This document shows positions 10,104 through 62,357 of a stretch of 64,000 nt of DNA, piece after piece. The position numbers were made by a program, and so were the translations under genes. Within the stretch, counting starts at the first letter, position 1. Every line of letters begins with the position of its first letter. The notes beneath the pieces are model-generated. The model saw only the letters and a program-made list of their open reading frames with translations. It searched no databases and was not told the DNA's origin. Source of the stretch: an uncultured Gammaproteobacteria bacterium (GTDB taxonomy: Bacteria; Patescibacteriota; Microgenomatia; JALYQM01); assembly GCA_964525495.1 (NCBI GenBank), contig CAZGHS010000001.1:10863-74862 (forward strand). Direction: 5' to 3'.

Positions 10104-10104
10104 C

Positions 10105-14456: not shown

Positions 14457-14618
14457 ATGAGTAAGCCTAAAAGAAGAACCAGTCCAAATAAGCAAGAAGC
14501 GCCACAAAATGCAGCATTAGAAGACAAAATGCGTGCATTTGCTAATCAAATTATTGATGTGATTTTAGATGACTACAAGCAAGGAAAAATGAAATATAAT
14601 AAGCTCAAAGGAAAGTAA
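14457..14618 (+). CDS. Unannotated 53-aa basic ORF immediately upstream of the serine recombinase (candidate excisionase/RDF or regulator)
   Basis: ATG at 14457 to TAA at 14616-14618 encodes MSKPKRRTSPNKQEAPQNAALEDKMRAFANQIIDVILDDYKQGKMKYNKLKGK. The stop is 3 nt before the recombinase ATG. It is below the 60-aa cutoff of the track. Confidence 0.3.
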   Translation: MSKPKRRTSPNKQEAPQNAALEDKMRAFANQIIDVILDDYKQGKMKYNKLKGK

Positions 14619-14620
14619 CT

Positions 14621-44421: not shown

Positions 44422-44493
44422 ATAGGAATAATACCAAACTCTATTGACAAAGGGAATTCATCTCTTCTACAGTACTAGATAAGGGGACCCTTT

Positions 44494-45804
44494 ATGGATC
44501 AAACAACAAAAACGCCGCTTGCTACACCAACAGAAACACCAATTACTCAAACTCAAAAAGAATCAACTCTGAATTCAGTACAACCTGAAAAAAAATCTTA
44601 TTTAGTGCTAGGAATTGCTCTTGTTGTTGGTGGATTGGCAGTAGGAATCCTCGGAGGTTGGGCACTCACCAGTTTCACTTCAAATCAACAGATCACAACT
44701 ACATCGGCAAATCAGTCACAGGAATCTACACTATCAGGTGATCCATTTGTAATAGGCATGATCGTACCATTAACAGGTGACGGTGCATCATATGGAACAA
44801 ACGCCAAAGAGATTGCGCTCATGACAGAAAAAGAGCTCAATAACAAGGATGGCATTGGCGGGCGCCCTATCAAGTTCATTTTTGAAGATGGTCAATGCAT
44901 GGGCGACAATGCTAAAAATTCCGCTACCAAATTAATAAACGAGGATAAAGTAGATCTTCTTTACGCAGGTGAATGTTCAGATGAAGTATTAGCGGCAGCA
45001 CCGATTGCTCAGGAGAAAAAAATCATTTCGATATCTACAGGCGCAACGAATCCAAAAGTAAGTGAGCTCGGTAAATATGTGTTTAGAACTGCCCTTTCCG
45101 ATGAAGTTGGAGGTCGTGTGGCAGCTAAGTATGCGCTAGACAAGATGAATTCTAAAACTGCAGCAATAATAGTAGAAAATACAAGCTATGCGCTTGGACT
45201 AAGAGATGTTTTTAATGAAGAATTCACCAAACTAGGTGGAAAAGTTTTATATAGTACAGTGTTTGAAACAGGTGAAACAGATTTCGTTACAACAGCCGAA
45301 GCGGTAGCAAAGGCAAATCCAGATCTCGTATATATTATTCCCCAAACCCCTATTCCAGGAGTTCTGGCTATTAAAGCAATCCGCGAGAAGCAACCAAAAG
45401 TCGCGTTCTTAACTGCAGAAGTATTACTCGCCCGCGATGAAATTGAAAAGCACGGAAAAATCCTCGAAGGCCTCATCGGAATGGAAGCCTACTTCGATGC
45501 TGAAAGCGAAGGATATAAACAACTCAAAGACAAATTTGTAAAAGAGTATGGTCGAGACGTCGCGTATCCTACAGACTTAGTTGAAATTCATGATTTTATT
45601 TACCTCTACAAAGCAGCCTATGAATCAGTAGGATCAAACGATACAGACAAGATATCAGAATATATGTACAGCCTAAAAGACTGGAAAGGCACGGCAAGCA
45701 ATCTAACATTTAACAAACAAGGCGATATTATTTCTAAGAAATACGGTATCTATAAAATTACAAATAATACAGCGAACTTGATTGAAACCTACGCTACACA
45801 ATAG
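44494..45804 (+). CDS. Membrane-anchored LivJ-type (type I periplasmic binding fold) ligand-binding protein
   Basis: N-terminal TM anchor, then the Peripla_BP_6-like pattern (IGMIVPLTGDGASYG...EDGQC). Paralogous to 48100..49275. Confidence 0.6.
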   Translation: MDQTTKTPLATPTETPITQTQKESTLNSVQPEKKSYLVLGIALVVGGLAVGILGGWALTSFTSNQQITTTSANQSQESTLSGDPFVIGMIVPLTGDGASYGTNAKEIALMTEKELNNKDGIGGRPIKFIFEDGQCMGDNAKNSATKLINEDKVDLLYAGECSDEVLAAAPIAQEKKIISISTGATNPKVSELGKYVFRTALSDEVGGRVAAKYALDKMNSKTAAIIVENTSYALGLRDVFNEEFTKLGGKVLYSTVFETGETDFVTTAEAVAKANPDLVYIIPQTPIPGVLAIKAIREKQPKVAFLTAEVLLARDEIEKHGKILEGLIGMEAYFDAESEGYKQLKDKFVKEYGRDVAYPTDLVEIHDFIYLYKAAYESVGSNDTDKISEYMYSLKDWKGTASNLTFNKQGDIISKKYGIYKITNNTANLIETYATQ

Positions 45805-45813
45805 AATCATGAC

Positions 45814-48096
45814 ATGCCAAACAAAATCCATATATCATTTCGCAACAAGTTACTACTGCTGCTACTTACAATATCGGTAGTTCCTCTTCTACTCGTCGCG
45901 TATATCGTTTCAAGCACCGTACAAGATCGTTATCGAGAAACATTAGCAAAGTCATTCGAAACCAATGTTGAATACAGGGAAAAAATACTAAACTACTATC
46001 TCGAAGGAAACAAAGAGTGGATAAGAAGTATCGCAGCGCAAGATATTTTCCTCGCTGAAATGGAGAAATATAACGCAGGAGAAACATATTCAGAAAACAA
46101 AATATTTGCTTCCCTCGTATCACTCCGTCGTGAGAATCAGTTTATAGATAAAATATATATTGCCGATATTGACGGAAAAATCATTTCATCAACCACAACT
46201 GATGACAATGAAAAAATTATAGAAAATTTTAGTGAATTTAAGCATATAACACAGCGTGGCTCTTACTATCAAAAAATCAAAACCACTCCGCAAGGTAAGC
46301 GAATTGTTACACTAACCACCCCTTTTATAAAAAGAAACGATGGCGAGATTATTGGCTTATTAATAGCAGAATATAATGCCAGTGTTGTAAAGTCATTAAT
46401 CGACGGAAGTCTCTACGAATCTCGCTCCATCAACCAAGAGAGTACCTCCTCACTCGGAAACACATTTATCATCGACGAAGATGGGTATATTCTAACCAGC
46501 ATTACCGGGACAAACATTCAAAAGACGCCTAAAACGCAACCGATCCAGCTATGTCAGTTAGGTAGCAACGCTGCCTCCGGTTACTGGATCAATAAGGAAG
46601 GCAAAGAAGTATATGGGTCATATAAATGTAATCAAATCGACAACATGAAGTTTACCTATATAGTCGAAGAGGAGTCCTCCAAAGCATTTACCATTAGCGA
46701 CAACGTGCGTAATACAATTTTCATGGTGACGTTAACGGTGGCTGTATTGTTAATCATCGCCACAATTACAACAGCAGGATCGGTGACACGACCAGTAAAA
46801 AAGCTTGCTCACGGGGCTCAAGAATTCGGTAAAGGTAACTTTACATATGCACTTGATGTAAAAACCGGTGACGAATTAGAAGAGCTAGCAGACTCATTCT
46901 CAGAAATGGCAAAACAAATCAACGGATCTATTAATAGTCTTAAACAGCAGGAAGATAAATTAAATAAAATAAACCAAGAATTGGAAACAGAAAAAGAAAC
47001 TATCTCAGCCGAGAGAAATAAGTTAGAAGTAATTATTGCAGGAATTACCGACGCAGTTATTGCGTTAGATATGAATCGCAAAATCGTAACAAGCAACAAA
47101 GCAGCCCAAGAATTAATTGGTCTGAGCGCAGATGAAATGCTTGGAAAGAATATTGCAGATCTTATTAAGCTCGAAGATGAAAGTGGCGAAGTTGTTCCAG
47201 ACACCTACAGTCCAATACGAAAAGACGATTTTGAAGGCGTAATTTACAAAAATGACGAATTAGAGCTTAAGCCTTTTAGAGCGAAAACCACCAAAGTAAA
47301 ATTAATTACTGGAAAAATCAAGGAAGCAGTCAGCGTAAACTTAGGATGCATCCTGACAATACACGACAAAAGTAAAGAAGCCGAATTAGAAGAAATGAAA
47401 TTAGACTTCGTATCGATGGCAGCACACGAGCTACGCACCCCAATCACATCGATCAGAGGATATGCAGGCCTCCTTGGGGAAGAAGTCGAAGAATTTAACG
47501 ATCCCAGAACAAACGATTGGAAGACACTAATTAGCAGAATATCGGTAAGCGCAGAACAGCTACTGGCACTCGTAGAAAATCTGTTAAACGTAACAAAAAT
47601 TGAAAAAGGAATCTTGAGTATCACCTGTAAAAATGAGAACTGGAAGGAGTGCGTACAAGAAGTATCTGAGGTATTTAAGGAACGAGCTATAAGCAAAGAA
47701 ATCAAGTTAACCGTCAAGGAAACAGACGAAGCAATCACTGCGTATGTCGATAAACTACGCATAAACGAAGTATTATCCAATCTTATATCCAACGCGATTA
47801 ACTATACACAAAACGGAGGCAATGTGACAGTCGAAGCGCATTTGTCAGCAGATGGGAACTGGATTGAAACATCAGTTGCAGATAACGGTAAAGGTATCCC
47901 AAAATCTGCTCAAGGTCACTTATTCGAAAAATTCTTCCGAGTTGCGGGTCCTCTCGAACAAGGCTCTAAAGGAAATGGTCTCGGACTATATATTTCCAAA
48001 TCGATAGTTGAGATGCATGGCGGAAAAATATGGGTTGAATCTGACGAAGGCAAAGGTGCAAAATTTACATATACTATACAAAGGGCTACAACATAA
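45814..48096 (+). CDS. Sensor histidine kinase with extracytoplasmic Cache-like domain, HAMP, PAS, HisKA and HATPase
   Basis: Two TM helices flank a roughly 270-aa extracellular domain, followed by a coiled coil. H-box FVSMAAHELRTPITSI. N, G1, G2 boxes (NAINYT, DNGKGI, GLGLYIS). Confidence 0.8.
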   Translation: MPNKIHISFRNKLLLLLLTISVVPLLLVAYIVSSTVQDRYRETLAKSFETNVEYREKILNYYLEGNKEWIRSIAAQDIFLAEMEKYNAGETYSENKIFASLVSLRRENQFIDKIYIADIDGKIISSTTTDDNEKIIENFSEFKHITQRGSYYQKIKTTPQGKRIVTLTTPFIKRNDGEIIGLLIAEYNASVVKSLIDGSLYESRSINQESTSSLGNTFIIDEDGYILTSITGTNIQKTPKTQPIQLCQLGSNAASGYWINKEGKEVYGSYKCNQIDNMKFTYIVEEESSKAFTISDNVRNTIFMVTLTVAVLLIIATITTAGSVTRPVKKLAHGAQEFGKGNFTYALDVKTGDELEELADSFSEMAKQINGSINSLKQQEDKLNKINQELETEKETISAERNKLEVIIAGITDAVIALDMNRKIVTSNKAAQELIGLSADEMLGKNIADLIKLEDESGEVVPDTYSPIRKDDFEGVIYKNDELELKPFRAKTTKVKLITGKIKEAVSVNLGCILTIHDKSKEAELEEMKLDFVSMAAHELRTPITSIRGYAGLLGEEVEEFNDPRTNDWKTLISRISVSAEQLLALVENLLNVTKIEKGILSITCKNENWKECVQEVSEVFKERAISKEIKLTVKETDEAITAYVDKLRINEVLSNLISNAINYTQNGGNVTVEAHLSADGNWIETSVADNGKGIPKSAQGHLFEKFFRVAGPLEQGSKGNGLGLYISKSIVEMHGGKIWVESDEGKGAKFTYTIQRATT

Positions 48097-48099
48097 TAT

Positions 48100-49275
48100 A
48101 TGAAAAATCACAAACATCTTTTCATAACCATTATTGTTGCATCAATCGCAACTGCATCTGTGTGGCTCCTCCTCTTAAATCAAAGTACCCAAAGCGCAAA
48201 TACTGTACTGCAGAAAAAGACCATCAAAATTGGCGGGATCCTTCCACTATCTGGAGACGCTGCCTCCGGGGGCATTCCCCTACAACAAGCGGCCGAAGTC
48301 GCAGTCAAAGAAATAAACAATGCAGGAGGATTACGCGGAAAATTAATTGAAACTATATGGGAAGATGGCCACTGCGAGAAAACTAGCGCAAAAATTGCTG
48401 CCGAAAAATTGTTGAATCAAAACGATATAGATTTCCTGATTGGTGGAGCTTGCTCTGATGAATTTCTTGTCTCAGCCCCTCTTGCCCAACAAAAAAACAT
48501 ATTAAGTTTTACCCCATCAGCTACTAGTCCTCAAATAAGTTTGCTCGGTGAAAATATTTTTAGAACAACTCCTTCAGATAGCTTAGCGGGCAAAGCTGCA
48601 GCACAATATGGCTACACAAAATTAAAATCCCGCAGAGTCGCTCTCATTAGCGAAGACAAAGATTTCACCACCAATCTAAAAGAAGAATTCAGAAAAGAAT
48701 ATCTGAAATTAGGCGGTGCTGTGGTATATGAAATAGTTTTCAAAACCGGAACTAATGAGTTTGACACAATAGCAAATGCAGTAAAAGCAGCTAAGCCAGA
48801 TCTCATATACCTCGTGCCACAAACTGAAAGTCCTGGAGTCTTAGCAATCAAATCCATAAAGCAAACATTACCGACCACAAATATTATGACGGGAGAAATA
48901 CTTTTACAAAGACAAACGGTTACAGAACAGGGTACTATCCTTGAAGGCATCACTGGAATTGAATTATATTACGACGAGACAAACCCAAAAACAAAACATC
49001 TACTCGATACATACAAATCGGAGTATGGCGTCGCCGCTCCCTATCCAGCTTATATGACTGGCATGTATGATATTTTTTATCTTATAAAAGAAGCCTACGT
49101 AAAAACCGATGGATCAACAGAAAAAATGGCAGAATATCTTCACCAATTAAATAACTGGCCTGGTGCTGTGGGAGAGTTATCCTTCGACAAAAATGGTGAT
49201 CCTGTACTTAACTACAGTATTAGAAAAGTAAAGAATAAGCAGACTGAATTAATAGAGATATACCGTCCTCAATAA
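48100..49275 (+). CDS. Second membrane-anchored LivJ-type binding protein (paralog)
   Basis: IGGILPLSGDAASGG...EDGHC. Same architecture as 44494..45804. Confidence 0.6.
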   Translation: MKNHKHLFITIIVASIATASVWLLLLNQSTQSANTVLQKKTIKIGGILPLSGDAASGGIPLQQAAEVAVKEINNAGGLRGKLIETIWEDGHCEKTSAKIAAEKLLNQNDIDFLIGGACSDEFLVSAPLAQQKNILSFTPSATSPQISLLGENIFRTTPSDSLAGKAAAQYGYTKLKSRRVALISEDKDFTTNLKEEFRKEYLKLGGAVVYEIVFKTGTNEFDTIANAVKAAKPDLIYLVPQTESPGVLAIKSIKQTLPTTNIMTGEILLQRQTVTEQGTILEGITGIELYYDETNPKTKHLLDTYKSEYGVAAPYPAYMTGMYDIFYLIKEAYVKTDGSTEKMAEYLHQLNNWPGAVGELSFDKNGDPVLNYSIRKVKNKQTELIEIYRPQ

Positions 49276-50364
49276 CTATTTAAGTATATCAATACTACTT
49301 TGCTTCATCGAGTCTAAGATTTTTGTAGATTCGACTCCCTGTGCCAAACGCACTTGTCCATACTTTTCAATAATAATTGGAACATAAGCTACGTCGACAA
49401 GCTTTTTGTTATTAAAAACATACTTCCCTATTACACCTTCTTTTGTTTCCCGTGACCACTCCTGGTCAAATATAAAATTGCCATGCGCATACGCAATAAA
49501 CCCTTGCTTATATTGTTCAACACTTTGAACCCAATGGGGGTGATTTCCCATAACAAAATCAGCGCCATTATCAACAAAAAAATGCCCAAGATCAATCGGA
49601 TCATCCGGTGCTATCCCTGCAGCTCGCTGCGGAAAATAAGTATACTCTTTCCCCCAATGAACTGAGACAACGACAACATCAACCATTTTCTTCAGCGCGT
49701 TTAGTTTCTCAGCAACAAGAGGCTTATTCACTTGTGGTCCAACGGCATTTATAGCAAAAATACCCAAGCGCATATCGTTAACTGTCGTAATCAGCGGTTC
49801 GTCAAATGTAACACTCTCAATATTCGCATCCAATAAATGAGAAATCGTTTCTTTCTTCCCCTGTAACCCATGATTCAAAATATGGTTGTTCTCTAAAGTA
49901 GCAATTGATATACCAGCGTCACTCATAGCCTGTGCAAACAATGGCTGCCCACAAAACACCATTCCTTCAGTATGATGAGGGCAACTAGCTATTAACGGAG
50001 CTTCTAAATTAGTAATAGTAATATCACCTGAGGAGAAGAGTCCGGGAATATGCTCGAAGGGAAAGTTTACACCAAGTCGTCGAATTTTATTATCCGTTAC
50101 GCGCGCAGGAATAATATCCCCGGTTGCCATAATTACGCTTGAGTGAGGGTCATCTAGCACTTCGGAATCTGAAAAAATCGACTCAATAGTTAGTGGTTCA
50201 AAAGACACAGCTAACGGTGTCGCGACTGCTGCATCAACTTTCTCCACAACAAGCGGCTCTCCAGCATTATAGAATGGAGTGGGCGAAAGTGCTCGAAATA
50301 AAGCAACTCCGCCAATTAAAGTGAAGGCAAGTCCACTAAAAAAAATAAGAATTTTTTTTATCAC
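49276..50364 (-). CDS. CapA/PGA_cap family metallophosphoesterase-like protein
   Basis: N-terminal anchor, then GDIIPARV, NLEAPL, LENNHILNHG, and MGNHPHWVQ blocks typical of CapA. Confidence 0.6.
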   Translation of the reverse strand: MIKKILIFFSGLAFTLIGGVALFRALSPTPFYNAGEPLVVEKVDAAVATPLAVSFEPLTIESIFSDSEVLDDPHSSVIMATGDIIPARVTDNKIRRLGVNFPFEHIPGLFSSGDITITNLEAPLIASCPHHTEGMVFCGQPLFAQAMSDAGISIATLENNHILNHGLQGKKETISHLLDANIESVTFDEPLITTVNDMRLGIFAINAVGPQVNKPLVAEKLNALKKMVDVVVVSVHWGKEYTYFPQRAAGIAPDDPIDLGHFFVDNGADFVMGNHPHWVQSVEQYKQGFIAYAHGNFIFDQEWSRETKEGVIGKYVFNNKKLVDVAYVPIIIEKYGQVRLAQGVESTKILDSMKQSSIDILK

Positions 50365-50367
50365 AAG

Positions 50368-50838
50368 TTATTTTTGAATAATAACGGGCGCTATGAATAA
50401 ATCTTTAGTAACTTCAACAAAACTTGGATTAATAGGAATTAAGTCAGCATCTTGTAACGTACTCTCAGCATTCGACTCTAAATATGCAACCTCAGCATCA
50501 GAGTAATTGGAAGGAGAAGCAACTCGAATTTGATACTTGCCGGCAGGTACACTTTCAATAACTGCCGTACCAATATCGTTGACCAAAGCACTTCGAACAA
50601 AATCGTCTTCAAAATTTGCGAGTTCGATTCGTAGATTCCGCTCACCACTTCCTAAAATTCCATATTTCTCTGGAAAATATGGAAGAGCTTTAGCTACTTT
50701 TATCTCTACCCTATATGCAGATTTAAATTGAGCTTCTTGAAAAAGTGCCGCAGAAAGATTTCGCATGCCAAGATATATTTCCGGCAAATACCACACAAAA
50801 GCTATCGCTAAAATAAATGGAAAAACTCTCCTCAACAT
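50368..50838 (-). CDS. Hypothetical secreted protein
   Basis: N-terminal TM/signal. No motif. Confidence 0.35.
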   Translation of the reverse strand: MLRRVFPFILAIAFVWYLPEIYLGMRNLSAALFQEAQFKSAYRVEIKVAKALPYFPEKYGILGSGERNLRIELANFEDDFVRSALVNDIGTAVIESVPAGKYQIRVASPSNYSDAEVAYLESNAESTLQDADLIPINPSFVEVTKDLFIAPVIIQK

Positions 50839-50852
50839 AACGTACTTTAAGA

Positions 50853-51950
50853 CTACCGATTAGCAACAGCTTCGTCAACTATGGATTTAATCCGTAAGTT
50901 AAATTTGGAGCGAGAAAAGTCTGATGCACGTAACCGACATGCCTCAGGATTAAATTTCATCGTACTAAAACGCTGTAAAGCCCCTACTACAGCATCAACT
51001 GTCTGCTGTTCAAAGAAAATACCCGTTTGTCCATCCACTACAGATTCACAAACACCACCCTTGGCATAAGCAATAACTGGTTTTCCCCACGCCATCACTT
51101 CAAGAGGCGCTAACCCAAAATCTTCAAAACCTGGAAAAATAAGGCCTTTAGACTGAGCAATCAGAAGATTTCTCTTCGTATCATCAACGTACCCAACAAA
51201 CGTAATAGTTTCCCCTGCAATACTTTCCAAATATGACCGTTCGCTACCTTCACCCACAATTACTAACTTTACTTTCAATTCATTACAAGCACGAACAGCT
51301 AAATCTACTCGTTTAGATCGTACAAGTCGAGATAAACATATAAAATAATCACTACTGCTCGAATACACCTTGGCAAACTCTTTCTGTTCGGGGACATCAA
51401 CAAACGAATAAATTACAGTTGCTTTTCGCTTATAATAACTCGCCATGCGATCTGCAGTAGTATGTGAATTAGTAAGTAATCGATCAATACGCTGTACTGC
51501 AATATATTCATGGTTCCGCAAAAAAGATTTTTGGAACATACTCACTAATGAACTCTTTATAGATCTCTTCTGCTCATCTAGAAATCCATAGAGTGTTTGC
51601 GCAGGAGTATGCATATAGCTGATATGAACAACCTGAGGAGGACAAATCACAAACTTGGAGAAAATAACGTCCGAGGTGATTACAACATCGTACGATGACA
51701 AATCGAGCCGTTCCATCACCGACACCAGGTACGGCGCATAAATTTGAGGGTATACATCAATTTTTGGCAAAGATGATGCGACACTGGTTATCCGTAACCC
51801 TTTCCAATGCGCAGGAAATTTCGTGTGGTCATACGTCAAAGTATAAATATCCACTTGGTTATCAAAACATAACGCCAATGCTTCCAAAAAACGTTCTGCA
51901 CCACCATATTGAGTCAAAAAATCATGAACGAGCGCTATCTTCATAAACAA
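50853..51950 (-). CDS. GT4-family (GT-B) glycosyltransferase
   Basis: E-x7-E region FGLAPLEVMAWGKPVIA and Rossmann-like halves. Confidence 0.7.
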   Translation of the reverse strand: MFMKIALVHDFLTQYGGAERFLEALALCFDNQVDIYTLTYDHTKFPAHWKGLRITSVASSLPKIDVYPQIYAPYLVSVMERLDLSSYDVVITSDVIFSKFVICPPQVVHISYMHTPAQTLYGFLDEQKRSIKSSLVSMFQKSFLRNHEYIAVQRIDRLLTNSHTTADRMASYYKRKATVIYSFVDVPEQKEFAKVYSSSSDYFICLSRLVRSKRVDLAVRACNELKVKLVIVGEGSERSYLESIAGETITFVGYVDDTKRNLLIAQSKGLIFPGFEDFGLAPLEVMAWGKPVIAYAKGGVCESVVDGQTGIFFEQQTVDAVVGALQRFSTMKFNPEACRLRASDFSRSKFNLRIKSIVDEAVANR

Positions 51951-52755
51951 TCTCTTTAATCGCAGTAATATGAATACCTGCGCCAGGCAAAAACCAAAAT
52001 AATCGTGATTCCCAGAACCAAATCCACGATATACTATTTTTTATCCAACGTAAAACGAAAACTCCACTGCGTGAACCCTCCGCATCCAAAGATCCTTCCA
52101 AAGAGTTTTCAATTTTTTTCCCAGATAAACTGAGCAATAGGTAGTAAAAAAGGTCACCAATCTGATTAAGCAAGTGACAACTCCATCGTACTTCAATTAT
52201 CCGCAGTCCAGCATCCTGACACATAATTTCAACTGCATTACGCGTTAGTTTTTGTATATGCCCGGCTGTCTTTTCTTTTAAATTAACCCCCACAGCATTT
52301 AACAATCCATGCAGACTAAATATCTCCCCTTCACAAGGCACATATGCATGAAATAGTCCACCATTATCCAACACGCGAACAGATTCTTTAATACATGTAG
52401 CCGGATCCACAACATGCTCCAATACATCGAAAAAACACACAACAGAAAAAACAGAAGAATTATACGGCAGAGATTCTGCCGGTCCTTCGACTAAATGCAA
52501 TTGAGGAAAATGTTCTGAACCATATCGAATAGCAGCTCGCCCAATGTCAACTCCATACAGTTCAAGTTCGGGAGAATATCTCTGTATTCCAAGCAGATTT
52601 CCACCTGCACCGCAACCAATTTCCAACAGCTTTCCTATACGATTCTTAAGATGAGGAATAAAATAAAAAAACCGCAATCCTGCTAAACAGAAGGGAGATA
52701 TCTCAGGGATAACGGTACCCCACACTTTAGTTTCATAGTCAAATTGATAACTCAC
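51922..52755 (-). CDS. Class I SAM-dependent methyltransferase
   Basis: LLEIGCGAGGNL motif I. Confidence 0.6.
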   Translation of the reverse strand: MSYQFDYETKVWGTVIPEISPFCLAGLRFFYFIPHLKNRIGKLLEIGCGAGGNLLGIQRYSPELELYGVDIGRAAIRYGSEHFPQLHLVEGPAESLPYNSSVFSVVCFFDVLEHVVDPATCIKESVRVLDNGGLFHAYVPCEGEIFSLHGLLNAVGVNLKEKTAGHIQKLTRNAVEIMCQDAGLRIIEVRWSCHLLNQIGDLFYYLLLSLSGKKIENSLEGSLDAEGSRSGVFVLRWIKNSISWIWFWESRLFWFLPGAGIHITAIKEIVYEDSARS

Positions 52756-53285
52756 AATTCGTAGAACTCCAAACTCAGTTCTTTTAATTTTTCAACGTCG
52801 TCGTATTTATGGTCATTACCTGGAATCTCGTGAAGTCGGTAATCAATAACGTTCTTTGAAATAAGAAGTTCGTCTAAATCTTTAGCAGACATTGCCGGAT
52901 CTGACTCCTGCTGAATAAAAAGCGTCGGAACGTGATAATTAGTTAACCAATTATCAATATCATAACCCCGTTCCTTCCCCCACAGTACTGGAGTACCAAC
53001 AAAAATGCACACTTCTGGATCCAACACACCTTCAAAAATTCCATACAGAGTAAGTAAAACTCCAGCAGATTTTGCAAATATAACGTACTTATCAAACTCT
53101 TGAACAGTAGCGGTAAGCTTCAACAATTCAGCGTCCAAATCAATCTCAGACTCCTCATCTCCGTTCCACCAATGATCATAGTAAAGAACTGCTGTATGAG
53201 GAAAAATACCTTGAAAGGCTCCATCTACACGGTCCACCCACACTTTATCTGACTTACTGTTTCCTGGCAACAAAATTAGGTTCAT
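52752..53285 (-). CDS. Hypothetical protein
   Basis: 177 aa with no motif. Translationally coupled to the upstream methyltransferase. Confidence 0.35.
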   Translation of the reverse strand: MNLILLPGNSKSDKVWVDRVDGAFQGIFPHTAVLYYDHWWNGDEESEIDLDAELLKLTATVQEFDKYVIFAKSAGVLLTLYGIFEGVLDPEVCIFVGTPVLWGKERGYDIDNWLTNYHVPTLFIQQESDPAMSAKDLDELLISKNVIDYRLHEIPGNDHKYDDVEKLKELSLEFYEL

Positions 53286-53347
53286 ATCTCACCATTATAC
53301 CCTATCAACACCTTCCTATTTAGTACCCAACTCGATATACTCTACCC

Positions 53348-54997
53348 ATGACACAACATGCTGATCAAGGCGGTTATTATGAAGACGATGATGTTAAAGA
53401 AGAAAAGCATCTCCAGCACGACGTCGAACCAAAATCCCAGCGTGTAACAACAATCATCACTCTCGTAGTTCTTATAGTAATTGCCCTCACTGCACGATTA
53501 ATATACCTCTTTCTCGTAGCCAATCCTGACAATCCAGGAGCTGGTTGGTTTGGAGACTCCTATCACCATTGGCAAATAGGATATCTCACAAAAGAAATTG
53601 GACTAAGCCAAGGATTTCTGCGCGTCTGGGATTTAAAAGGTATGGACCTCTTTTGGGGAGCACTCCATCCACTTACACTTGCATTCGCCTTTAGCATTAC
53701 CGGTAACGATTCAATGGCATTAGCACGCGCTATCACTTGTATCGCCGGAGCTATATCAGTCGGACTAATTTACCTTATTGGAAGAAAATATTGGAATAAT
53801 ACTGTTGCAATCATGGGAGCGCTCTTTGCAGCGCTGTGTTCAATTATCATTTTCAATGATGCAACTGGCATGGTTGAACCTCTTGGTATCCCCTTCCTAC
53901 TTGCCGGAGTATATTTTTGGCCTCGTAAGTCACTACTATCTGGCTTGTGCTTCGGCATTGCACTCACGACTCGCTCAGAATATTGGATGTACAGCATCGG
54001 TTTAATTTTCGTCTATACGATATGGGATCGCATGGCGCACATGGATAAAAAAGTACTTTTGTGGCTTGGATTGTTCATAATTCTCGTTCCATATATGAAA
54101 TATCTACTGGATTATACCGGCAATCCTGTATACCCTTTTTATCAAAACTTTTTCAAAAACATAGCAGGCGAATGGCAATATAAAAAAGTACTAGAACCCG
54201 CAGATCTTCAAGGCCAGCTTACGTTTAGAATCATATTAGCTATCACCACACTAGCCACTGTCATAACACTCTGGAAGAGGCCGCGCGGATGGCAATTCCA
54301 CCTGCTCGGTCAAGGAAACTGGCTCTTCTTAGGATTAACATTTGGTGTATCAAACTATATTAAGAGCTGGGCAGATTATGTCTGGGTAGTCAGATTTATG
54401 CTCTTCCCCTATACCTATCTCGGAGTCGTAATAGCAATTGCACTTTTCTATACGTTCCGGGAAAGGCTCTCAGGAGGACTTAAATCTACATATACAGTCG
54501 TAGCTGCCGCCACTTTCATACTTTTCATAGGAACTACTCATCTCGCATGGCAAGAGATAAATAAATATTATGAACCAACCAACAAAACATGGAGTTATGT
54601 ACAAGAAGTAGCCACAAAGATGAGTACGGGGTACAAAGGAGGAAAAATCCTTTTACCAGAAGGTAATCCAGACTTAACGTATGCCTTAGTTACATTCCAT
54701 GGAGTGGAAGGCAAAGACATGCTAAGCCAAATGTACGATCCGATCGGATATGCCAGCCAAAATGGCCTAAACGCTGTCGAAAACTGGAACAATGTCGACC
54801 CATTTAGTAAAGAAGGCTTAACCTTTAAGGAAGAAGTTCGTGACTATCTCAAAACCAATAAAGTGCAATACATTATCACTTATGGGAGCTTCCCTCGATA
54901 TAATGTATTAGTGGAAACCGAACCAACGTGGTTCAGCGTTGCAGTTCCACTCTCAGAAAACTTTATTGCTCTCCATGTGAATCAAGACAATCTTTAG
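53348..54997 (+). CDS. Polytopic membrane protein, GT-C-fold glycosyltransferase-like (ArnT/PMT/Emb-like architecture)
   Basis: Eleven or more TM helices in the first 400 aa, then a roughly 150-aa soluble C-terminal domain. Acidic residues sit in the first extracytoplasmic loop. Fold assignment is tentative. Confidence 0.4.
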   Translation: MTQHADQGGYYEDDDVKEEKHLQHDVEPKSQRVTTIITLVVLIVIALTARLIYLFLVANPDNPGAGWFGDSYHHWQIGYLTKEIGLSQGFLRVWDLKGMDLFWGALHPLTLAFAFSITGNDSMALARAITCIAGAISVGLIYLIGRKYWNNTVAIMGALFAALCSIIIFNDATGMVEPLGIPFLLAGVYFWPRKSLLSGLCFGIALTTRSEYWMYSIGLIFVYTIWDRMAHMDKKVLLWLGLFIILVPYMKYLLDYTGNPVYPFYQNFFKNIAGEWQYKKVLEPADLQGQLTFRIILAITTLATVITLWKRPRGWQFHLLGQGNWLFLGLTFGVSNYIKSWADYVWVVRFMLFPYTYLGVVIAIALFYTFRERLSGGLKSTYTVVAAATFILFIGTTHLAWQEINKYYEPTNKTWSYVQEVATKMSTGYKGGKILLPEGNPDLTYALVTFHGVEGKDMLSQMYDPIGYASQNGLNAVENWNNVDPFSKEGLTFKEEVRDYLKTNKVQYIITYGSFPRYNVLVETEPTWFSVAVPLSENFIALHVNQDNL

Positions 54998-56504
54998 AAA
55001 CATAATAAATATAGACAGTATCTTGATACGCTAAACTTTTTTCAAATACTTTTCGTAATTCAAAACAACTTGGATTATCCAACCGATAGTTCAATAACAT
55101 AACGCCTTCGCCGCCAAGGTGCGCTAAAGAGCGCCTAACCACCTCGCTTTGATCAATTGCCTGCCGATCCGTGTTCATAACCACATAAGTACCTACAGTG
55201 TCACTACGAGGATAATATAAATGCCTATTTAAATATATTGCGATAGGAGTCATCGCATAGTCAAAATCCACACTGATAGGCAGTCTGTCGAGTTGCGAAG
55301 TCTTTAAATAATCTGAGACATCCTTACTCGTCATGAATGGTTCATTAAAATCTGCATAGTACGCATAGATTCCACAGACAAAATGTACCGAAAGCAACAC
55401 AGTAAAAAACGGCGGGAATATTCGATTTACTGCCTTATACATTTTTTCAGATCGAACAGACAAACCATCTTCTCTCTCGGGATAAAAACTTCTTAGCCAC
55501 ACGATACATATAAAAAGAATAAAAAAGAAGCCATAATGACGGACCGCTCCATAGTAAGTGGTATAAAATAACAAAAACAACACACTCGCCGCACCCAAAT
55601 ATAACCCTAGTAACACTCGCCTCTTAACAAGCAAAAGACACGAATACAAAATAAACAAGCCAACTAATCCAATCGCAATACCAATCGAAACATACTGCGT
55701 AGTCGAAAGTGATTCAGTGTTCTGAACCGGCATAACAATATTTGTATTCCAAAAATGAAGTCCGAAGTGAGGAATTGGTATCATCCCACGCCAAACCATC
55801 AAACTAGATAGAGCCACCCTCTGTAAATCAAAGTGGGTATACGAATCCAAGGTATAACTACGATCAACGGGCGGCAATAATTTAAGCAGCGCAGTACCAC
55901 TCAAGGATACAAAACAGAATAAAGAGATCACTAATATTCGCCAATCAACTTTTTTGCGATATATCCATATATATTCACCAAACAAAAAACAACCCAAAAC
56001 AAGCGAAAAAAGAAATCCAACTGGCGAAGTCTGCCCTAACAATCCCACAATCAAAGCAGTGAGATATAATCGTCGAAACCGTTGCGCATACCAAGCACAA
56101 TATATAAAGAGAAGCAAAACAGTCAAACCATAGTTCCGGCTTATAACGGCATATTCAAAAAAAACAAAGTAACCAAAAATAAATAAAATCTTATCGAGCA
56201 ATCGAAAAGGTGCATATCGACAAAAAACTACAATTCCAATCAAAGCAATGGCTATATGAGCCAGTTGCATATAGTAAAAATTGTCAGTAATCCGAGTTAC
56301 TCCAAACAGGATCGAATACCACATCATAGGGTGCGCTTCATATGTTAGATTCTGATAAAGGTTGACCAACGAGCTGCTATCTCGCGCAAAAAGCCAGCCA
56401 TGCGCTTCTTCATACCACAATTCATGTCGAGGCAATAGCAAAACAAGAAGAAAAAACCAAATACCTACAATGATATAAACAAAATATTTTCTAAAATTAC
56501 CCAT
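54963..56504 (-). CDS. Polytopic membrane protein, possibly a second GT-C-like glycosyltransferase or polymerase
   Basis: 513 aa. About 12 TM helices, then a C-terminal soluble domain. Confidence 0.35.
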   Translation of the reverse strand: MGNFRKYFVYIIVGIWFFLLVLLLPRHELWYEEAHGWLFARDSSSLVNLYQNLTYEAHPMMWYSILFGVTRITDNFYYMQLAHIAIALIGIVVFCRYAPFRLLDKILFIFGYFVFFEYAVISRNYGLTVLLLFIYCAWYAQRFRRLYLTALIVGLLGQTSPVGFLFSLVLGCFLFGEYIWIYRKKVDWRILVISLFCFVSLSGTALLKLLPPVDRSYTLDSYTHFDLQRVALSSLMVWRGMIPIPHFGLHFWNTNIVMPVQNTESLSTTQYVSIGIAIGLVGLFILYSCLLLVKRRVLLGLYLGAASVLFLLFYTTYYGAVRHYGFFFILFICIVWLRSFYPEREDGLSVRSEKMYKAVNRIFPPFFTVLLSVHFVCGIYAYYADFNEPFMTSKDVSDYLKTSQLDRLPISVDFDYAMTPIAIYLNRHLYYPRSDTVGTYVVMNTDRQAIDQSEVVRRSLAHLGGEGVMLLNYRLDNPSCFELRKVFEKSLAYQDTVYIYYVSKDCLDSHGEQ

Positions 56505-56531
56505 ATAAACTATGCTAGAATACTATTCTAG

Positions 56532-58220
56532 ATGAAAACGCTTGGTATCAATCCTTTTAGTCATGACGCAAGTGTTGCACTCTGTGTCGATGGAAAAATT
56601 ATAGCAGCTGTTACACAAGAGCGTTTTGACAGGATAAAACACAGCACCCAAATTCCTCGAGAGGCACTAGAATTCTGCCTCAAGCAAGGAGATATCTCGG
56701 ACATAAACCAACTCGAAAGCATCGGATTCACGTTTAACTTTCTACATTGGAAAATCATTTGGCACCTACTCGACACCCTCTCCCCGATTCTGCCATCACA
56801 AATAGTAACTCCTTTTTTAAAAAATAAATCTCATCTCTGGAATATTATTAAGATTTGGCATCTCTTAAGAAAAGAGCAAAACTATAAAGGTAAGGTAATA
56901 TTCCTAGAGCATCATCTATGTCATGCAGCATCGGTATACTTTGCATCTCCTTATTCTGACTCAGTAATTATTACTGCCGACGGCAAAGGAGAAATCGCCA
57001 CCACCTGCATTTATGAAGCCGATCAATCAAATATCAAGAAAAAACTTCAGATTAATCATCCAGATTCTATCGGCATCCTGTACTCTCTTGTTACCGAATT
57101 TCTAGGATTTAAACAACTATGTGACGAAGGAAAAATCATGGGGCTCGCACCATACGGAAACAATTCATTAGTAGATTCAATGAAAAAACTTATTCGACTT
57201 GAGGATGGGTTCTCCATTAATATGAACTATTTTCAGCAGGATATTTTCAGCCGATTATCTTTCAGTGAAAAATTTTACGATATATTCGGAAATAAACGTA
57301 AAAAGGATGAAGAACTCACCCAGCACCACAAAAACATAGCCTTCGCAATACAGGCACTAACAGAAAAAATTATTCTCCATATTGTTGCGGTCTCGAAGAT
57401 GCGAACTGAGTCCTCGAACCTCTCGATGGCAGGAGGAGTTATTCTTAACAGCGTAACAAACGGTAAAATTCTTGAATCCAATTTCTATAAAAATGTATAT
57501 TTCTATCCTGCTGCAGGTGACGACGGCACTGCAGTCGGTGCTGCATTTCTAACCTACTATCAAAACAATACCTCTAAACAAAACATTATTGAGAACAGCT
57601 CACCTTATCTTGGACCAGAAATATCAGAGTCAGACATTCTAGCAGAATTAGCAAAACGAGGAATCAAATACACAAAATCAGAAAACATTGCGCATGAAAC
57701 CGCGAAACTTCTCGCACAAAACAAATTTGTCGGGTGGATACAGGGAAAGGCAGAGTTTGGACCGCGCGCGTTAGGCAATCGCTCGATCCTCGCCGATCCG
57801 CGCAATCCCCATAACAAAGATCGACTTAACGCGACTGTCAAATTTCGTGAAAGCTTCCGACCGTTCGCTCCATCAATCTTGGAAGAAGAGGCAACAAAAC
57901 ATTTCAAATCAGATGGAATTAACTCACCGTATATGATCGTTACCTACGATGTAGTCAAGGACAAACAAGACAAAATTCCTGCGGTTACACATATCGACAA
58001 GACGGCCAGAATACAAACGGTTAACAAACAACAAAACGAAAGATACTACAACTTAATAAGCGAATTTAATAAATTAACAGGAGTTCCTGTTTTACTCAAC
58101 ACAAGTTTCAATCGTATGAATGAACCAATTGTAAATTCAGCTGAACAAGCAGTTACCTGCTTTCTAGAATCTGGACTTGAAGTCCTCGCAATGGGAGATT
58201 ATCTAATACTTAAAGATTAG
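56532..58220 (+). CDS. NodU/CmcH-family carbamoyltransferase
   Basis: N-terminus LGINPFSHDASVALCVDGKIIAAVTQERFDRIKHS and the C-terminal YrdC/HypF-like half. 562 aa. Confidence 0.75.
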   Translation: MKTLGINPFSHDASVALCVDGKIIAAVTQERFDRIKHSTQIPREALEFCLKQGDISDINQLESIGFTFNFLHWKIIWHLLDTLSPILPSQIVTPFLKNKSHLWNIIKIWHLLRKEQNYKGKVIFLEHHLCHAASVYFASPYSDSVIITADGKGEIATTCIYEADQSNIKKKLQINHPDSIGILYSLVTEFLGFKQLCDEGKIMGLAPYGNNSLVDSMKKLIRLEDGFSINMNYFQQDIFSRLSFSEKFYDIFGNKRKKDEELTQHHKNIAFAIQALTEKIILHIVAVSKMRTESSNLSMAGGVILNSVTNGKILESNFYKNVYFYPAAGDDGTAVGAAFLTYYQNNTSKQNIIENSSPYLGPEISESDILAELAKRGIKYTKSENIAHETAKLLAQNKFVGWIQGKAEFGPRALGNRSILADPRNPHNKDRLNATVKFRESFRPFAPSILEEEATKHFKSDGINSPYMIVTYDVVKDKQDKIPAVTHIDKTARIQTVNKQQNERYYNLISEFNKLTGVPVLLNTSFNRMNEPIVNSAEQAVTCFLESGLEVLAMGDYLILKD

Positions 58221-59681
58221 TTACAAACTAACCTGCTTAATTTTATACTCAAAAATCGATTTATCTTCCTTATTATCAATAAAATTCTGTGCTAACTGAA
58301 AAGCCATTTCGATACTATTATCCGAGTTGTTATACCGAAATATTCCAGTTCTTCCCAGCAAATAGACATCATCACTTTCCAAGTATTGCACGACCTGTTG
58401 CAACCGCTCTTTGTAATCCAAATCATATACAGGATACGCATACCGTATTCGCTTCACAAAAGTCCCTAATACCTTGTCGAGAGCAAACAATTTAATCCGA
58501 TCCCCAGCCTCTACGCACTCCTGAGATAATTGTTCATCGCTTTTATTCCATGTCTCATCACCAAAATAACAGGTAATATCTAAACAAACACAGGTTTTGC
58601 CAGCAGGTGCCATCTTTTTTGACCAATTTGTAAATTCCACAGATCGATTAAATGGAATATCTTTATCGGGAAAATACATCCAATGATCATTGGAAACACG
58701 ATCCTGATCCAAAAACACATAGACAAAAATAATATCCATATACTTGGTCTGTTTTAATAAACTCTCTATCTTTTCGCTCTTTTTCTCTTGCAAGTCATAC
58801 AACAACTTGAGAGGTACAGTAGAAACAAGAGAATCATACGGAACAACCTGTTCCACGTTATCTTTCACATACACAACTTCATGTTTTTCTTTTCGGATCT
58901 CTTTTACCAAAGCTCTCAGGGTTACTTCTCCTCCATGCACTTGTAAATCGCGAGCAAATGCATCCGGCACTTCTTGAATACCGTCATCCGGATAATAAAA
59001 CTCTCCCCCATCCGGTGCGAGAGAATCATCTTCAAGATCATATCGAAAAAAATTAAATGAAATAAGTTTTTGTACTGCGCGCTTAATTAATTTCTGTAAA
59101 TTCTCACCGCTAAAGCGCGCATCTGCCCAATCTGCAGAGATTTCACCCGGATCCATTCCCCAAATTTTTGAGGTGTATCGGTAGCACATAATTTCATACA
59201 ATTTTGGACCGTAGTAATACAAAAACCAGTCCTTATATGATCGTACATTCCGAGCCTTACCTCGCAGTTTAAATCTATTCCACAAATAATCTACGCCACA
59301 CAAAAAAGCTTCATGCAACGGCATCGCACCAAACAAATTATCTAACTCGAAAGGATATTTAAGATACTTATTATATAAATAAATACGACTCTTCTTGATG
59401 TGCGTCTTCATCTCCAAGCCAGGAAGTGAATGTATAACATCGAGCAACTCTTTGTTTTTTGTATGAAACCTATGCGCTGAGAAGTCCAATAAGTACCCAT
59501 CGTGCTCCATCGTGCGACTCAATCCACCTACCACATTCTCCTTTTCCAATACCAATACAGATTTACCGCTCTTTGCAACTTTCCACGCAAACGAAAGCCC
59601 TGCAACACCCGCGCCTAGTACGATAAAGTCATACTTCTTTAGTTCCATTGTGTTAAATACTCCTTCAAACACTCTTGCCAA
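58221..59681 (-). CDS. FAD-dependent UDP-galactopyranose-mutase-like flavoenzyme
   Basis: Dinucleotide-binding KKYDFIVLGAGVAGLS...VLVLEKENVVGG and the AHRFHTKN block, comparable to the Glf AH-x-FHT motif. 486 aa, longer than bacterial Glf. Confidence 0.5.
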   Translation of the reverse strand: MARVFEGVFNTMELKKYDFIVLGAGVAGLSFAWKVAKSGKSVLVLEKENVVGGLSRTMEHDGYLLDFSAHRFHTKNKELLDVIHSLPGLEMKTHIKKSRIYLYNKYLKYPFELDNLFGAMPLHEAFLCGVDYLWNRFKLRGKARNVRSYKDWFLYYYGPKLYEIMCYRYTSKIWGMDPGEISADWADARFSGENLQKLIKRAVQKLISFNFFRYDLEDDSLAPDGGEFYYPDDGIQEVPDAFARDLQVHGGEVTLRALVKEIRKEKHEVVYVKDNVEQVVPYDSLVSTVPLKLLYDLQEKKSEKIESLLKQTKYMDIIFVYVFLDQDRVSNDHWMYFPDKDIPFNRSVEFTNWSKKMAPAGKTCVCLDITCYFGDETWNKSDEQLSQECVEAGDRIKLFALDKVLGTFVKRIRYAYPVYDLDYKERLQQVVQYLESDDVYLLGRTGIFRYNNSDNSIEMAFQLAQNFIDNKEDKSIFEYKIKQVSL

Positions 59682-60514
59682 GAACGCATAGTATACAGAT
59701 TTTGCTCCATCAAGCGCTTATTAACAAGTTTTTCAGAAACTGGCCGAGGCGCATGATACTCTTTCGCAACAAAGTCGGAAGAAACTTTGTGCAATACAAT
59801 ATCGTCACGCTGCAATTCTTTCAAGATATACTCGGCAACATCATAGCGACTCGCACACCCCTCGCAAACACTGTGATACAAACCGTACGATTCTTTTTCT
59901 ACGACATTAAAGATATTTTGAACTAAGTCATAAGTGTATGTCGGAGTTCCAAATTTATCGTCAACTACAAATAATTCTTTCTCTCCATTTTTAATCTTCT
60001 TAAGCAACTTATTAACAAATTTCTTATCCTTTTTCTCCCCGCCACCCATCATCCAGCCAGCTCGAAATATATAATGTTTAGTGTATTGTGCAACCAATTG
60101 CTCAGCAGCATATTTGGTCTTGCCATATGCATTAATTGGATTAGGCGTATCTTCTTCCATATATGCATCCTGATCCCCATCAAAAACTCCCGCAGTAGAG
60201 ATATGAACCATAGGAACGTCAAGCGCTTTGCAGGCATTCAAAACATTCTGCGTTCCAAGCATATTAGTTACATGCGCTTCTTTAGGATGCAACTCACAAT
60301 ACTCTACATCAGTCAAAGCGGCCAAATGCACCACGATGTCTGGCTCAAATGTATGTATTTGACGCGTTGTAAGATCCGAATCCCGCACATCACCATACTC
60401 TAAAAACGTATCATTTACATCAATATCAGTAGCAAAAAAATTATCAGAATTTTTGAGGCGATGATAAAATGCTTCCCCAAGCATTCCACCACAACCAGTT
60501 ATGTAAACACGCAT
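59639..60514 (-). CDS. SDR-family NAD(P)-dependent sugar reductase/epimerase, RmlD (dTDP-4-dehydrorhamnose reductase)-like
   Basis: MRVYITGCGGMLG Rossmann motif. 291 aa. Y-x3-K catalytic pair. Confidence 0.6.
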   Translation of the reverse strand: MRVYITGCGGMLGEAFYHRLKNSDNFFATDIDVNDTFLEYGDVRDSDLTTRQIHTFEPDIVVHLAALTDVEYCELHPKEAHVTNMLGTQNVLNACKALDVPMVHISTAGVFDGDQDAYMEEDTPNPINAYGKTKYAAEQLVAQYTKHYIFRAGWMMGGGEKKDKKFVNKLLKKIKNGEKELFVVDDKFGTPTYTYDLVQNIFNVVEKESYGLYHSVCEGCASRYDVAEYILKELQRDDIVLHKVSSDFVAKEYHAPRPVSEKLVNKRLMEQNLYTMRSWQECLKEYLTQWN

Positions 60515-60571
60515 ACGAGGTAGTGTACCGACACGGAAACCTATTTACAAGCCGTATCAAACTCATTTACT

Positions 60572-61435
60572 ATGCTCTGTATGTCTGAATTTTCTGCTCA
60601 CACCCAATGGCAAGCTGAACTCTACGACGAACATCCACCTCTCAACCCTTTTGAGAAACTTCATCGTGAAATCGGTTTCGCTCTTGTTTGTCGCCCTAAA
60701 GATCTAGCTACAAAAAACTACCTCGAACAATTCAAGGTCAACGATCAAACCAAAATCCTTGACATGGGATGCGCCTCAGGATTTCTGCTCCAGCGAATCA
60801 GCAAAACATTTGGCTCCCAAGGAACAGGAATAGATGTGTCAAAAGTACTTATCGACAAAGCAAAGCAAGAAGATCCCAATAACCAATACTTTTTGGCCGA
60901 CGCATCCAAACTACCATTTCCAGACAACACCTTCGATCTTGTAACCAGCTTTGATAACCTCGAACATATTCAAGAATACAAAAAAGTAATTAAAGAAATG
61001 GTACGAGTATTAAAACCAGGCGGAACGATACTACTCAACACTATTAACAAACACAACCGTTTTACGTTCGACTGGCTCCTGGAAAAACTTGGCAGCGACT
61101 ATCATATGCGACGCGCTGGCCATGTTAAGGAGCTTTTTTTCGACCCTCAGGATATAAAAGTACTATTTGAAGAAGCAGGTTTAGAAAACACTAAAATCCG
61201 ACTGTTTGATGCTACATTTATTTTGATTATGGATTGTGCCTTATACATATTCCTCATGGCAATAGAGAAACTAGCAAATGTTACAAATAGTTATCATAGA
61301 TTAGGGCGAATATCCCTTACTATTACTAATATCGCAAGTAAACTCTCATTACCAGTACTCGAAAAATGTGATACAGTTATTATTAAACACGGGTTTTCCA
61401 ACGCGTTTTTCCTAACTGGAGTAAAAAGCAAATAA
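60572..61435 (+). CDS. Class I SAM-dependent methyltransferase
   Basis: ILDMGCASGFLL and LKPGGTILL. Confidence 0.6.
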   Translation: MLCMSEFSAHTQWQAELYDEHPPLNPFEKLHREIGFALVCRPKDLATKNYLEQFKVNDQTKILDMGCASGFLLQRISKTFGSQGTGIDVSKVLIDKAKQEDPNNQYFLADASKLPFPDNTFDLVTSFDNLEHIQEYKKVIKEMVRVLKPGGTILLNTINKHNRFTFDWLLEKLGSDYHMRRAGHVKELFFDPQDIKVLFEEAGLENTKIRLFDATFILIMDCALYIFLMAIEKLANVTNSYHRLGRISLTITNIASKLSLPVLEKCDTVIIKHGFSNAFFLTGVKSK

Positions 61436-61447
61436 ACTAAAAACAAT

Positions 61448-62356: not shown

Positions 62357-62357
62357 T

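Follow-up and report, generated by a model that had tools for sequence, protein, structure and literature searches.

A candidate binding-protein-assisted sensor kinase operon with two LivJ-type binding proteins in a Patescibacteriota genome

The window analysed here is a 64,000-nucleotide stretch (forward strand, positions 10,863 to 74,862) of the 223 kb contig CAZGHS010000001.1 from assembly GCA_964525495.1, which is registered as an uncultured Gammaproteobacteria bacterium and placed by GTDB in the Patescibacteriota (Microgenomatia; JALYQM01). At window positions 44494–49275 it carries three open reading frames (ORFs) on the plus strand that encode a LivJ-type periplasmic binding protein (PBP-A, 44494–45804), a sensor histidine kinase (HK, 45814–48096) and a further LivJ-type binding protein (PBP-B, 48100–49275). 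A preliminary description, made from the sequence alone, had drawn attention to a kinase sandwiched between two paralogous binding proteins, and both parts of this statement stand: the ORFs are exactly as described, and an alignment of PBP-A with PBP-B over 366 aa shows 42% identity (E=2e-102).

The three genes are closely packed, with 9 nt between PBP-A and HK and 3 nt between HK and PBP-B, and no terminator-like site was found between them. Binding protein and kinase are encoded by distinct ORFs, which differ in frame and are divided by a stop codon, and do not form a single polypeptide of the Dret_0059 type that is discussed below. A promoter-like site lies 5′ of PBP-A within a 72-nt divergent intergenic region (44444–44473, plus strand); it comprises TTGACA, an 18-nt spacer and TACAGT, and agrees with the consensus at 10 of 12 positions. 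The scanned region holds 19 such matches, compared to 14.3±3.9 in shuffled sequence, and the site, being a consensus match only, is suggestive of a promoter upstream of PBP-A. It is followed by a Shine-Dalgarno-like AAGGGGA (~44482–44488, plus strand). At the other end, the PBP-B stop codon abuts a convergent PGA_cap gene (49276–50364, minus strand). With this operon-like spacing, PBP-A, HK and PBP-B probably form one operon.

Both binding proteins belong to the Pfam family Peripla_BP_6 (E=2.4e-45 for PBP-A, 436 aa; E=3.2e-53 for PBP-B, 391 aa). PBP-A starts with a 33-aa Pro/Thr/Gln-rich N-terminal tail, which is followed by a transmembrane (TM) signal-anchor predicted in a Kyte-Doolittle scan (aa 34–61; 44593–44676), a Ser/Thr/Gln linker and the binding domain (aa 86–423). 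In PBP-B the predicted signal-anchor spans aa 5–29 (48112–48186) and the binding domain aa 41–380. A regular-expression search for a lipobox found none in either protein. The one N-terminal hydrophobic helix in each agrees with the earlier statement that both are membrane-anchored, and, together with a Cys pair that matches the LivJ disulfide and would fit an oxidising compartment, it predicts that both PBPs are located outside the cytoplasmic membrane.

HK (760 aa) is composed of TM1, a double-Cache (dCache) domain, TM2, HAMP, a coiled coil, PAS, HisKA and HATPase_c. According to hydropathy, the two TM helices lie at ~aa 9–37 and ~297–325 and flank the extracytoplasmic dCache domain (aa ~38–296; 45925–46701), to which Pfam dCache_1 aligns at aa 43–278 with 45.0 bits, exactly the gathering cutoff of that family (45). 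The HAMP domain (aa 321–370, E=9.5e-12; 46774–46923) and the cytoplasmic PAS domain (aa ~403–486; 47020–47271; PAS at 403–459 with E=2.4e-10, PAS_9 with E=1.1e-8) follow, so that the Cache-like domain, HAMP and PAS previously read from the letters are all found by Pfam. The kinase core (47398–48084) consists of HisKA (aa 529–599), with the phospho-acceptor His538, and HATPase_c (aa 646–757). Ten orthologs all share the residues H538, N660, D690/G692/G694, F704/F707-708 and G720/G722/G724 of the H, N, G1, F and G2 motifs, so that the catalytic residues of the kinase are intact. By NCBIfam the core is WalK/PnpS/PhoR-like, under all cutoffs. Pfam finds no methyl-accepting chemotaxis protein signalling domain in HK; its output is HisKA/HATPase_c.

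The sensor domain of HK belongs to a rare and divergent family, which has the invariant residues R105-R106-E107-N108, S126, T129, R148, R163 and N188, as well as a conserved R148-x-[PS]-[YH] and an acidic residue at position 186. An AlphaFold2 model of the sensor, built from a 7-sequence alignment (pLDDT 67.9, pTM 0.53), has a long helix followed by two α/β modules with beta-sheets. Foldseek places this model with the dCache domains of Tlp3, TlpA, KinD, DctB and PctA (probability 1.00, TM-score 0.5–0.7), and a search of PDB sequences with the sensor profile gave no match at E≤1. The dCache fold would be compatible with sensing by an indirect route. The AA_motif of the dCache_1AA domains is formed, in PctA numbering, by Y121, R126, W128, Y144 and D173 (PMC8915833); its Y-x4-R-x-W element was found in none of the sensor sequences scanned, which were 7 of a set of 9, the window kinase not being among the sequences listed. 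A Cys pair in the membrane-proximal Cache module, C247/C272, is nearly invariant and probably forms an extracytoplasmic disulfide.

Full-length relatives of HK are few (P0002–P0007, 45–55% identity). When 1.84 billion representatives were searched with a profile of the sensor domain, only 12 clusters reached E≤1e-30, after which the scores drop to those of generic dCache domains. In every one of the 13 distinct loci with this sensor family (the window, L002, L004, L005, the P0005 locus, L008, L009, L010, L012/L095, L094, L096, L097 and L100) a PBP gene lies immediately 5′ of the kinase. For comparison, we used 80 control loci whose kinases have related cores and other sensors; these are mostly unrelated kinases from a scan of a genome collection with the full kinase alignment, in which the patterns fell in the generic kinase core. 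The species representatives of that collection do not include the window genome. The best partial matches of the scan are from Woykebacteria, Daviesbacteria and Roizmanbacteria; these, with the organism names attached to relatives of the receivers and PBPs, suggest a placement in the Patescibacteria/Microgenomates. No PBP gene was found within 10 kb of any of the 80 control kinases, and most of them have an adjoining receiver. The difference between 13/13 and 0/80 is highly significant (Fisher p=4e-16).

In five of the 13 loci (L002, L004, L005, L094 and L097) the gene order from recA to PGA_cap is syntenic with that of the window. L010, L012/L095 and L100 lie in other contexts, among MreB/FIST, ribosomal-protein or RecG/cupredoxin genes, and for L008, L009 and L096 the short contigs leave no surrounding genes to be read. 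The conserved unit is a PBP gene followed by the HK gene. The nearest relatives have this pair alone, followed by the convergent PGA_cap gene; a second, downstream PBP was seen only in the window lineage and in L097. There the PBP–HK–PBP order is colinear with the window, at ~67% DNA identity and 63/66/53% protein identity, which indicates that the arrangement is conserved in a second, well-diverged lineage; a sandwich unique to the window genome, which we had considered, is thereby ruled out. The other architectures are FIST–PBP–PBP–HK–receiver in L012/L095, PBP–HK–receiver in L009 and PBP–HK…2×REC–FIST–HK in L100. L010 has a tandem pair of PBP genes, the distal of which (L010:8648–9922) is split by a stop codon into the ORFs 8648–8953 and 8957–9922, owing either to pseudogene formation or to a fault in the assembly. 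In L097, a gene for a binding protein of the NMT1/THI5 type (L097:1439–2446) precedes the operon by two genes, with a methyltransferase gene between. No ABC transporter genes were found near it in the 18 kb covered, and genomes of this kind may often carry orphan binding proteins. A 1.61 Mb chromosome (L017, OZ246394.1), whose record is titled 'uncultured Gammaproteobacteria bacterium', encodes a kinase core with 41% identity to that of HK. Given a chromosome of this size, the label may be wrong; the other matches to the kinase core are mostly from Patescibacteria.

A neighbour-joining tree separates the binding proteins into three groups. PBP-A groups as an ortholog with the single PBPs that precede the kinase in its clade (L002, L004, L005, L094 and L097; 100% bootstrap), PBP-B and P0122, the downstream PBP of L097, form a separate clade (100% bootstrap), and the tandem PBPs of L012/L095 arose by a duplication of their own. 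This pattern indicates that a second PBP joined this kinase more than once. We also considered PBP-B as a recent tandem duplicate of PBP-A and rejected this origin, given that PBP-B is 42% identical to PBP-A but 50–53% identical to PBPs of other lineages, and falls in its own clade. To judge from these comparisons, PBP-B is an older, separately recruited paralogue that has been kept in one sister lineage. The orthologs of PBP-A in L002, L004, L005 and L097, like PBP-A itself (44494–44592), have a Pro/Thr/Ser/Gln-rich cytoplasmic tail of 20–35 aa before the anchor; PBP-B and P0122 are without it.

Two classes of genes were searched for around the operon, receivers and transporter components. 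When ~50 window ORFs with a length of 100 aa or more were searched with Pfam, none had a Response_reg, ABC_tran or Liv permease domain; the genes recognised there serve housekeeping and the envelope (UvrD, RNase Y, RecX, RecA, LepA, MurJ, glycosyltransferases and methyltransferases). Four receiver queries, run by phmmer with --max on every window ORF of 40 aa or more in the six frames, gave a best match of E=0.12, which is noise, and a local receiver hidden Markov model had no match in the window. The ABC signature motif occurs in no window ORF, and the sole Walker A motif there is that of a helicase. While the preliminary description had noted the lack of an ABC permease, an ATPase and a receiver in the roughly 10 kb around the operon, this absence extends 44 kb upstream and 15 kb downstream, and the LivHMGF-type genes just outside the region that would have made it an ordinary transporter operon are found at neither side over these distances. 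Among the family loci, 216 kb of sequence contain no ABC-like ORF. A canonical two-component system would have a receiver encoded with the kinase, and a hydrophobic amino acid (HAAT) importer would have LivH/M and LivG/F encoded with its binding protein; the 64 kb window has no such receiver, and LivH/M and LivG/F are absent both from it and from the 216 kb of family loci.

The deeper relatives differ from the window clade, which has no receiver gene nearby, in carrying a stand-alone receiver directly 3′ of the kinase (L009, L010, L012/L095 and L100). This is consistent with the receiver for HK being encoded outside the window, as had been proposed before. The downstream receivers are 133–166 aa long (L009:3779–4180, L010:13789–14196, L012:15316–15801 and L095:12338–12835); their receiver sequence is like that of the OmpR family, without a DNA-binding domain. 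The family of the L009-type stand-alone receiver has 1,966 homologues at E≤1e-15, of which the few named ones are from Patescibacteria. In L010 (7445–8632), L012 (8794–9981), L095 (5747–7015) and L100 (7836–9032) the string of genes that includes the PBPs and the kinase also encodes a cytoplasmic FIST/FIST_C protein of 395 aa. Of the NCBIfam models NosP matches this protein best, but with 87 bits where the cutoff is 450. NosP itself senses in the cytoplasm through a FIST domain and governs a kinase encoded alongside it (PMC12570481), and the likeness suggests that the FIST protein of these relatives may be a second, cytoplasmic co-sensor. The resemblance to NosP/NahK concerns L010, L012/L095 and L100 and not the window, in whose 64 kb no FIST gene was found.

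The solved structures closest to both PBPs are binding proteins for Leu/Ile/Val and for amino acids, namely 3TD9, 4GNR, 3IPC/3IP5 and LivJ (1Z15). In order to compare the pockets, the ligand-contact residues listed for LivJ (PMC6983066) were mapped onto the family by HMMER alignment to 1Z15 and by MAFFT alignment. The positions correspond to Y100, C135-C161, E160, S162, A184/T185, Y232, Q284, E309 and D361 in PBP-A, and to G57, C92-C118, A117, S119, A141/T142, F189, Q241, E266 and Y318 in PBP-B. The equivalents of the LivJ C53-C78 disulfide, S79, A101/T102 and E226, the last of which we take to be a contact position from the LivJ and LivK structures, are kept in all members of the PBP family, and every member has Gln in place of LivJ Y202. 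By these residues, both PBPs look capable of ligand binding. The two clades differ at four positions: LivJ Y18 is Y in the PBP-A clade and G in the PBP-B clade, L77 is E and A, Y150 is Y and F, and F276 is D and Y, respectively. The tandem pair of L012 differs at position 276 as well, with D in the proximal and F in the distal copy. PBP-A and PBP-B would accordingly bind amino-acid-like ligands with differing side-chain preferences, the pocket of PBP-A containing two acidic residues (E160/D361) and that of PBP-B being larger and aromatic. Against NCBIfam NF011933, a subfamily of branched-chain amino-acid ABC binding proteins, the two PBPs score 115.1 and 122.9 bits, compared to a cutoff of 477.

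PBP-A and PBP-B are like E. coli LivJ and LivK in fold, family, disulfide and the residues that hold the amino-acid backbone. They differ from the LivJ/LivK–LivHMGF system, which includes permease and ATPase genes, in their TM anchors, in the replacement of Y202 by Gln and in the side-chain pocket (E160/D361 in PBP-A; G57/A117/F189/Y318 in PBP-B). With no permease or ATPase gene nearby and with scores far under the subfamily cutoff, the window locus is not a member of that transporter system.

A second point of comparison is the PDB entry 5ERE (Dret_0059 of Desulfohalobium retbaense), whose residues 3–317 are matched by the profile of the PBP family (E=8e-15) and which is rank 6 among the Foldseek matches of the kinase sensor model. 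Its authors describe it, in the title, as a signal-transduction protein. Residues 322–562 of the same chain form a dCache domain (PMC8694187), so that a LivJ-type domain and a dCache domain are joined in one polypeptide, and by the Rosetta-stone argument such a fusion speaks for a functional connection of these domain types. In Dret_0059 both domains are part of one soluble polypeptide, whereas in the window they are encoded by separate genes and the dCache domain is part of a transmembrane kinase.

Binding proteins that act with dCache-type receptors are known from LuxP/LuxQ, ChvE/VirA, CBP/ChiS and BasB/BasT (PMC8050422). As in the window, the gene for LuxP, a type-I periplasmic binding protein, adjoins that of a sensor kinase and not of a transporter, and LuxQ has a dCache-like domain between two TM helices that binds a protein partner (PMC8050422); this Cache domain is entered as having no ligand of its own (PMC8694187). 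The systems differ in the family of the binding protein (Peripla_BP_4 for LuxP, Peripla_BP_1 for TorT, Peripla_BP_6 for the window PBPs) and in its number and attachment, LuxP/LuxQ and TorT/TorS having one binding protein free in the periplasm and the window two TM-anchored paralogues. They differ in their kinases too: LuxQ and TorS are hybrid kinases with receiver and histidine phosphotransfer (HPt) phosphorelays, HK is a plain HisKA/HATPase kinase with HAMP and PAS, and the sensor of TorS is helical while that of HK is a dCache. In BasB/BasT of Halobacterium salinarum, a Peripla_BP_6 gene lies directly 5′ of that for a dCache-like membrane receptor, and BasB is membrane-tethered and has no associated transporter genes, all as in the window; its ligands are aliphatic amino acids (PMC8050422). 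The output is different, BasT being an archaeal methyl-accepting chemotaxis transducer that feeds CheA and works with a single binding protein, and HK a histidine kinase with two PBPs. The preliminary description had likened the locus to TorT/TorS or LuxP/LuxQ. The general kind, a binding-protein-assisted kinase, is retained here, but TorT/TorS is not its nearest parallel: the closest precedents for the protein-family pairing are BasB/BasT and the 5ERE fusion. A census of 2021 has no kinase example with a Peripla_BP_6 protein (PMC8050422), and our literature search for this PBP-kinase module in Patescibacteria found nothing relevant. The signalling principle is already known; the set of parts is unusual.

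Taken together, we consider it probable that the three genes form an operon for a binding-protein-assisted two-component sensor whose receiver is encoded outside the window. PBP-A and PBP-B would be tethered by their N-terminal helices at the outer face of the cytoplasmic membrane, where each would capture a small ligand, most likely an alpha-amino acid, in side-chain pockets that differ. The ligand-loaded, closed PBPs may then dock onto the double-Cache domain of HK, the proposed docking platform, and docking would shift the TM2-HAMP-PAS relay and change autophosphorylation at His538. From there the phosphoryl group would pass to the receiver, probably a stand-alone CheY-like protein such as is encoded directly after the kinase in relatives. 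The sensed ligands are probably amino acids, judging from the pocket residues. Inferred are the docking of the PBPs on the sensor, the ligands that they bind, the direction in which the kinase is regulated, and which receiver is used and what it controls. That the locus serves signalling rather than transport, as the preliminary description had also held, is supported by the tight and specific coupling of PBP and kinase genes in differing contexts, by the lack of ABC genes in 216 kb and by the 5ERE fusion.

Several points weigh against this explanation. The five loci that are syntenic with the window are not independent observations of the linkage. The adjacent pairs of a solute-binding-protein gene (sbp) and a kinase gene AgtS/AgtB and AruS/PA4985 of P. 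aeruginosa showed no binding (PMC11113362). Where an outer membrane is lacking, binding proteins that serve transport are ordinarily tethered too (PMC8050422), and membrane anchoring, which had been taken as a pointer to signalling, is not diagnostic of it in monoderm-type cells, the anchoring itself being upheld. As the genome is viewed through 64 kb, a Liv-type permease or the cognate receiver could be encoded elsewhere in it. With Y202 replaced by Gln, the PBPs may bind something other than the usual branched-chain amino acids, the model of the sensor is of moderate confidence only, and the invariant Arg, Ser/Thr and acidic residues in the membrane-distal module of the sensor could form a ligand pocket of its own.

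These points bear on three other explanations. The PBPs might have a dual function, feeding an ABC importer encoded elsewhere and also reporting its substrate to the kinase, a double role known from BctC, GltB and the chitin-binding protein. Among protein families they match branched-chain amino-acid ABC binding proteins best, transport and signalling share a single binding protein in several characterised systems ('Ta & SPa', PMC8050422), and a distant importer would escape a view of 64 kb; yet neither the window nor the 216 kb of related loci has an ABC component, the PBPs stay far below the cutoff of the transporter subfamily, and their genes are predicted to be co-transcribed with a kinase and not with a transporter. 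We regard a dual function as unlikely. Less probable still is that the PBPs are orphan binding proteins of a distant ABC importer and serve transport alone, with a kinase that regulates them or is co-regulated with them and never touches them. The P. aeruginosa pairs illustrate that adjacency is no guarantee of interaction, and the tethering would be that of ordinary transport proteins, but the pairing is specific to one rare sensor family, persists across contexts and is never accompanied by a transporter; moreover, kinase and PBPs lie 3–9 nt apart in what appears to be one transcription unit, and the 5ERE fusion physically joins the two domain types.

A further explanation, to which we give about as little weight as to transport alone, is direct sensing, in which the dCache domain binds a small ligand of its own and the PBPs are accessory, either buffering or concentrating the ligand or providing optional extra inputs. 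Most dCache domains bind a ligand in the membrane-distal module, as do all of the structural neighbours Tlp3, PctA, KinD and DctB, and the invariant R105, R106, R148, R163, S126, T129 and N188, with the conserved acidic residue at 186, would suit such a pocket. The kinase P0009, 28% identical to HK, has a receiver and no PBP, but it does not match the family sensor profile. The Y-x4-R-x-W element, as described above, was not found in the sensor sequences scanned, LuxQ provides a precedent for a ligand-free dCache-like domain that serves only its binding protein (PMC8694187), and the co-occurrence of a PBP in 13 of 13 loci would be left unexplained if the PBPs were dispensable. The binding-protein-assisted sensor is the explanation that we retain.

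The surroundings of the operon offer a few further observations. The envelope cluster that is convergent to it (window 49276–63650) includes the PGA_cap gene and genes for GT4 glycosyltransferases, methyltransferases, PMT_2 and an acyltransferase, and its synteny is kept in all close relatives (L002, L004, L005 and L097). A gene for a PspC/LiaF-TM-like membrane protein of the envelope-stress type (23785–24294) adjoins a RadC gene; it is a possible further part of envelope signalling and has no kinase or regulator alongside. The region 10001–16339 has a G+C content of 0.35–0.38, compared to ~0.41, and the otherwise strong negative GC skew is lost there. It contains several ORFs without a Pfam match and a gene for a 572-aa serine recombinase (Resolvase domain, 14621–16339), and may be an integrated mobile element.

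Receptors activated by binding proteins are thought to be widespread, and few have been characterised. The window comes from a genome that is probably of the candidate-phyla-radiation type; signalling systems are scarce in such organisms, which probably rely on amino acids from outside. The locus described here is a compact candidate, well supported by its evolutionary pattern, for two differently tuned PBPs acting on one kinase, and its relatives offer alternative wirings with one PBP, tandem PBPs, an added FIST co-sensor or an adjoining stand-alone receiver. If the proposed mechanism is true, it would provide a testable model of amino-acid sensing with several inputs, and the PBP and dCache parts would make a portable sensor pair; if it is false, the locus would be a further documented case of misleading gene adjacency. 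A more specific and tentative possibility is that an ultra-small Patescibacteria-type cell without any Liv transporter uses the anciently diverged PBP-A, with its acidic pocket, and PBP-B, with its enlarged aromatic pocket, on one rare dCache kinase, on which both would dock in order to integrate two classes of host-derived amino acids or amines, with output through a stand-alone receiver and not a transcription factor. Such a three-protein receptor would be the first binding-protein-dependent kinase that uses Peripla_BP_6 proteins with two inputs, and would represent a dedicated host- or nutrient-sensing device of an episymbiont.

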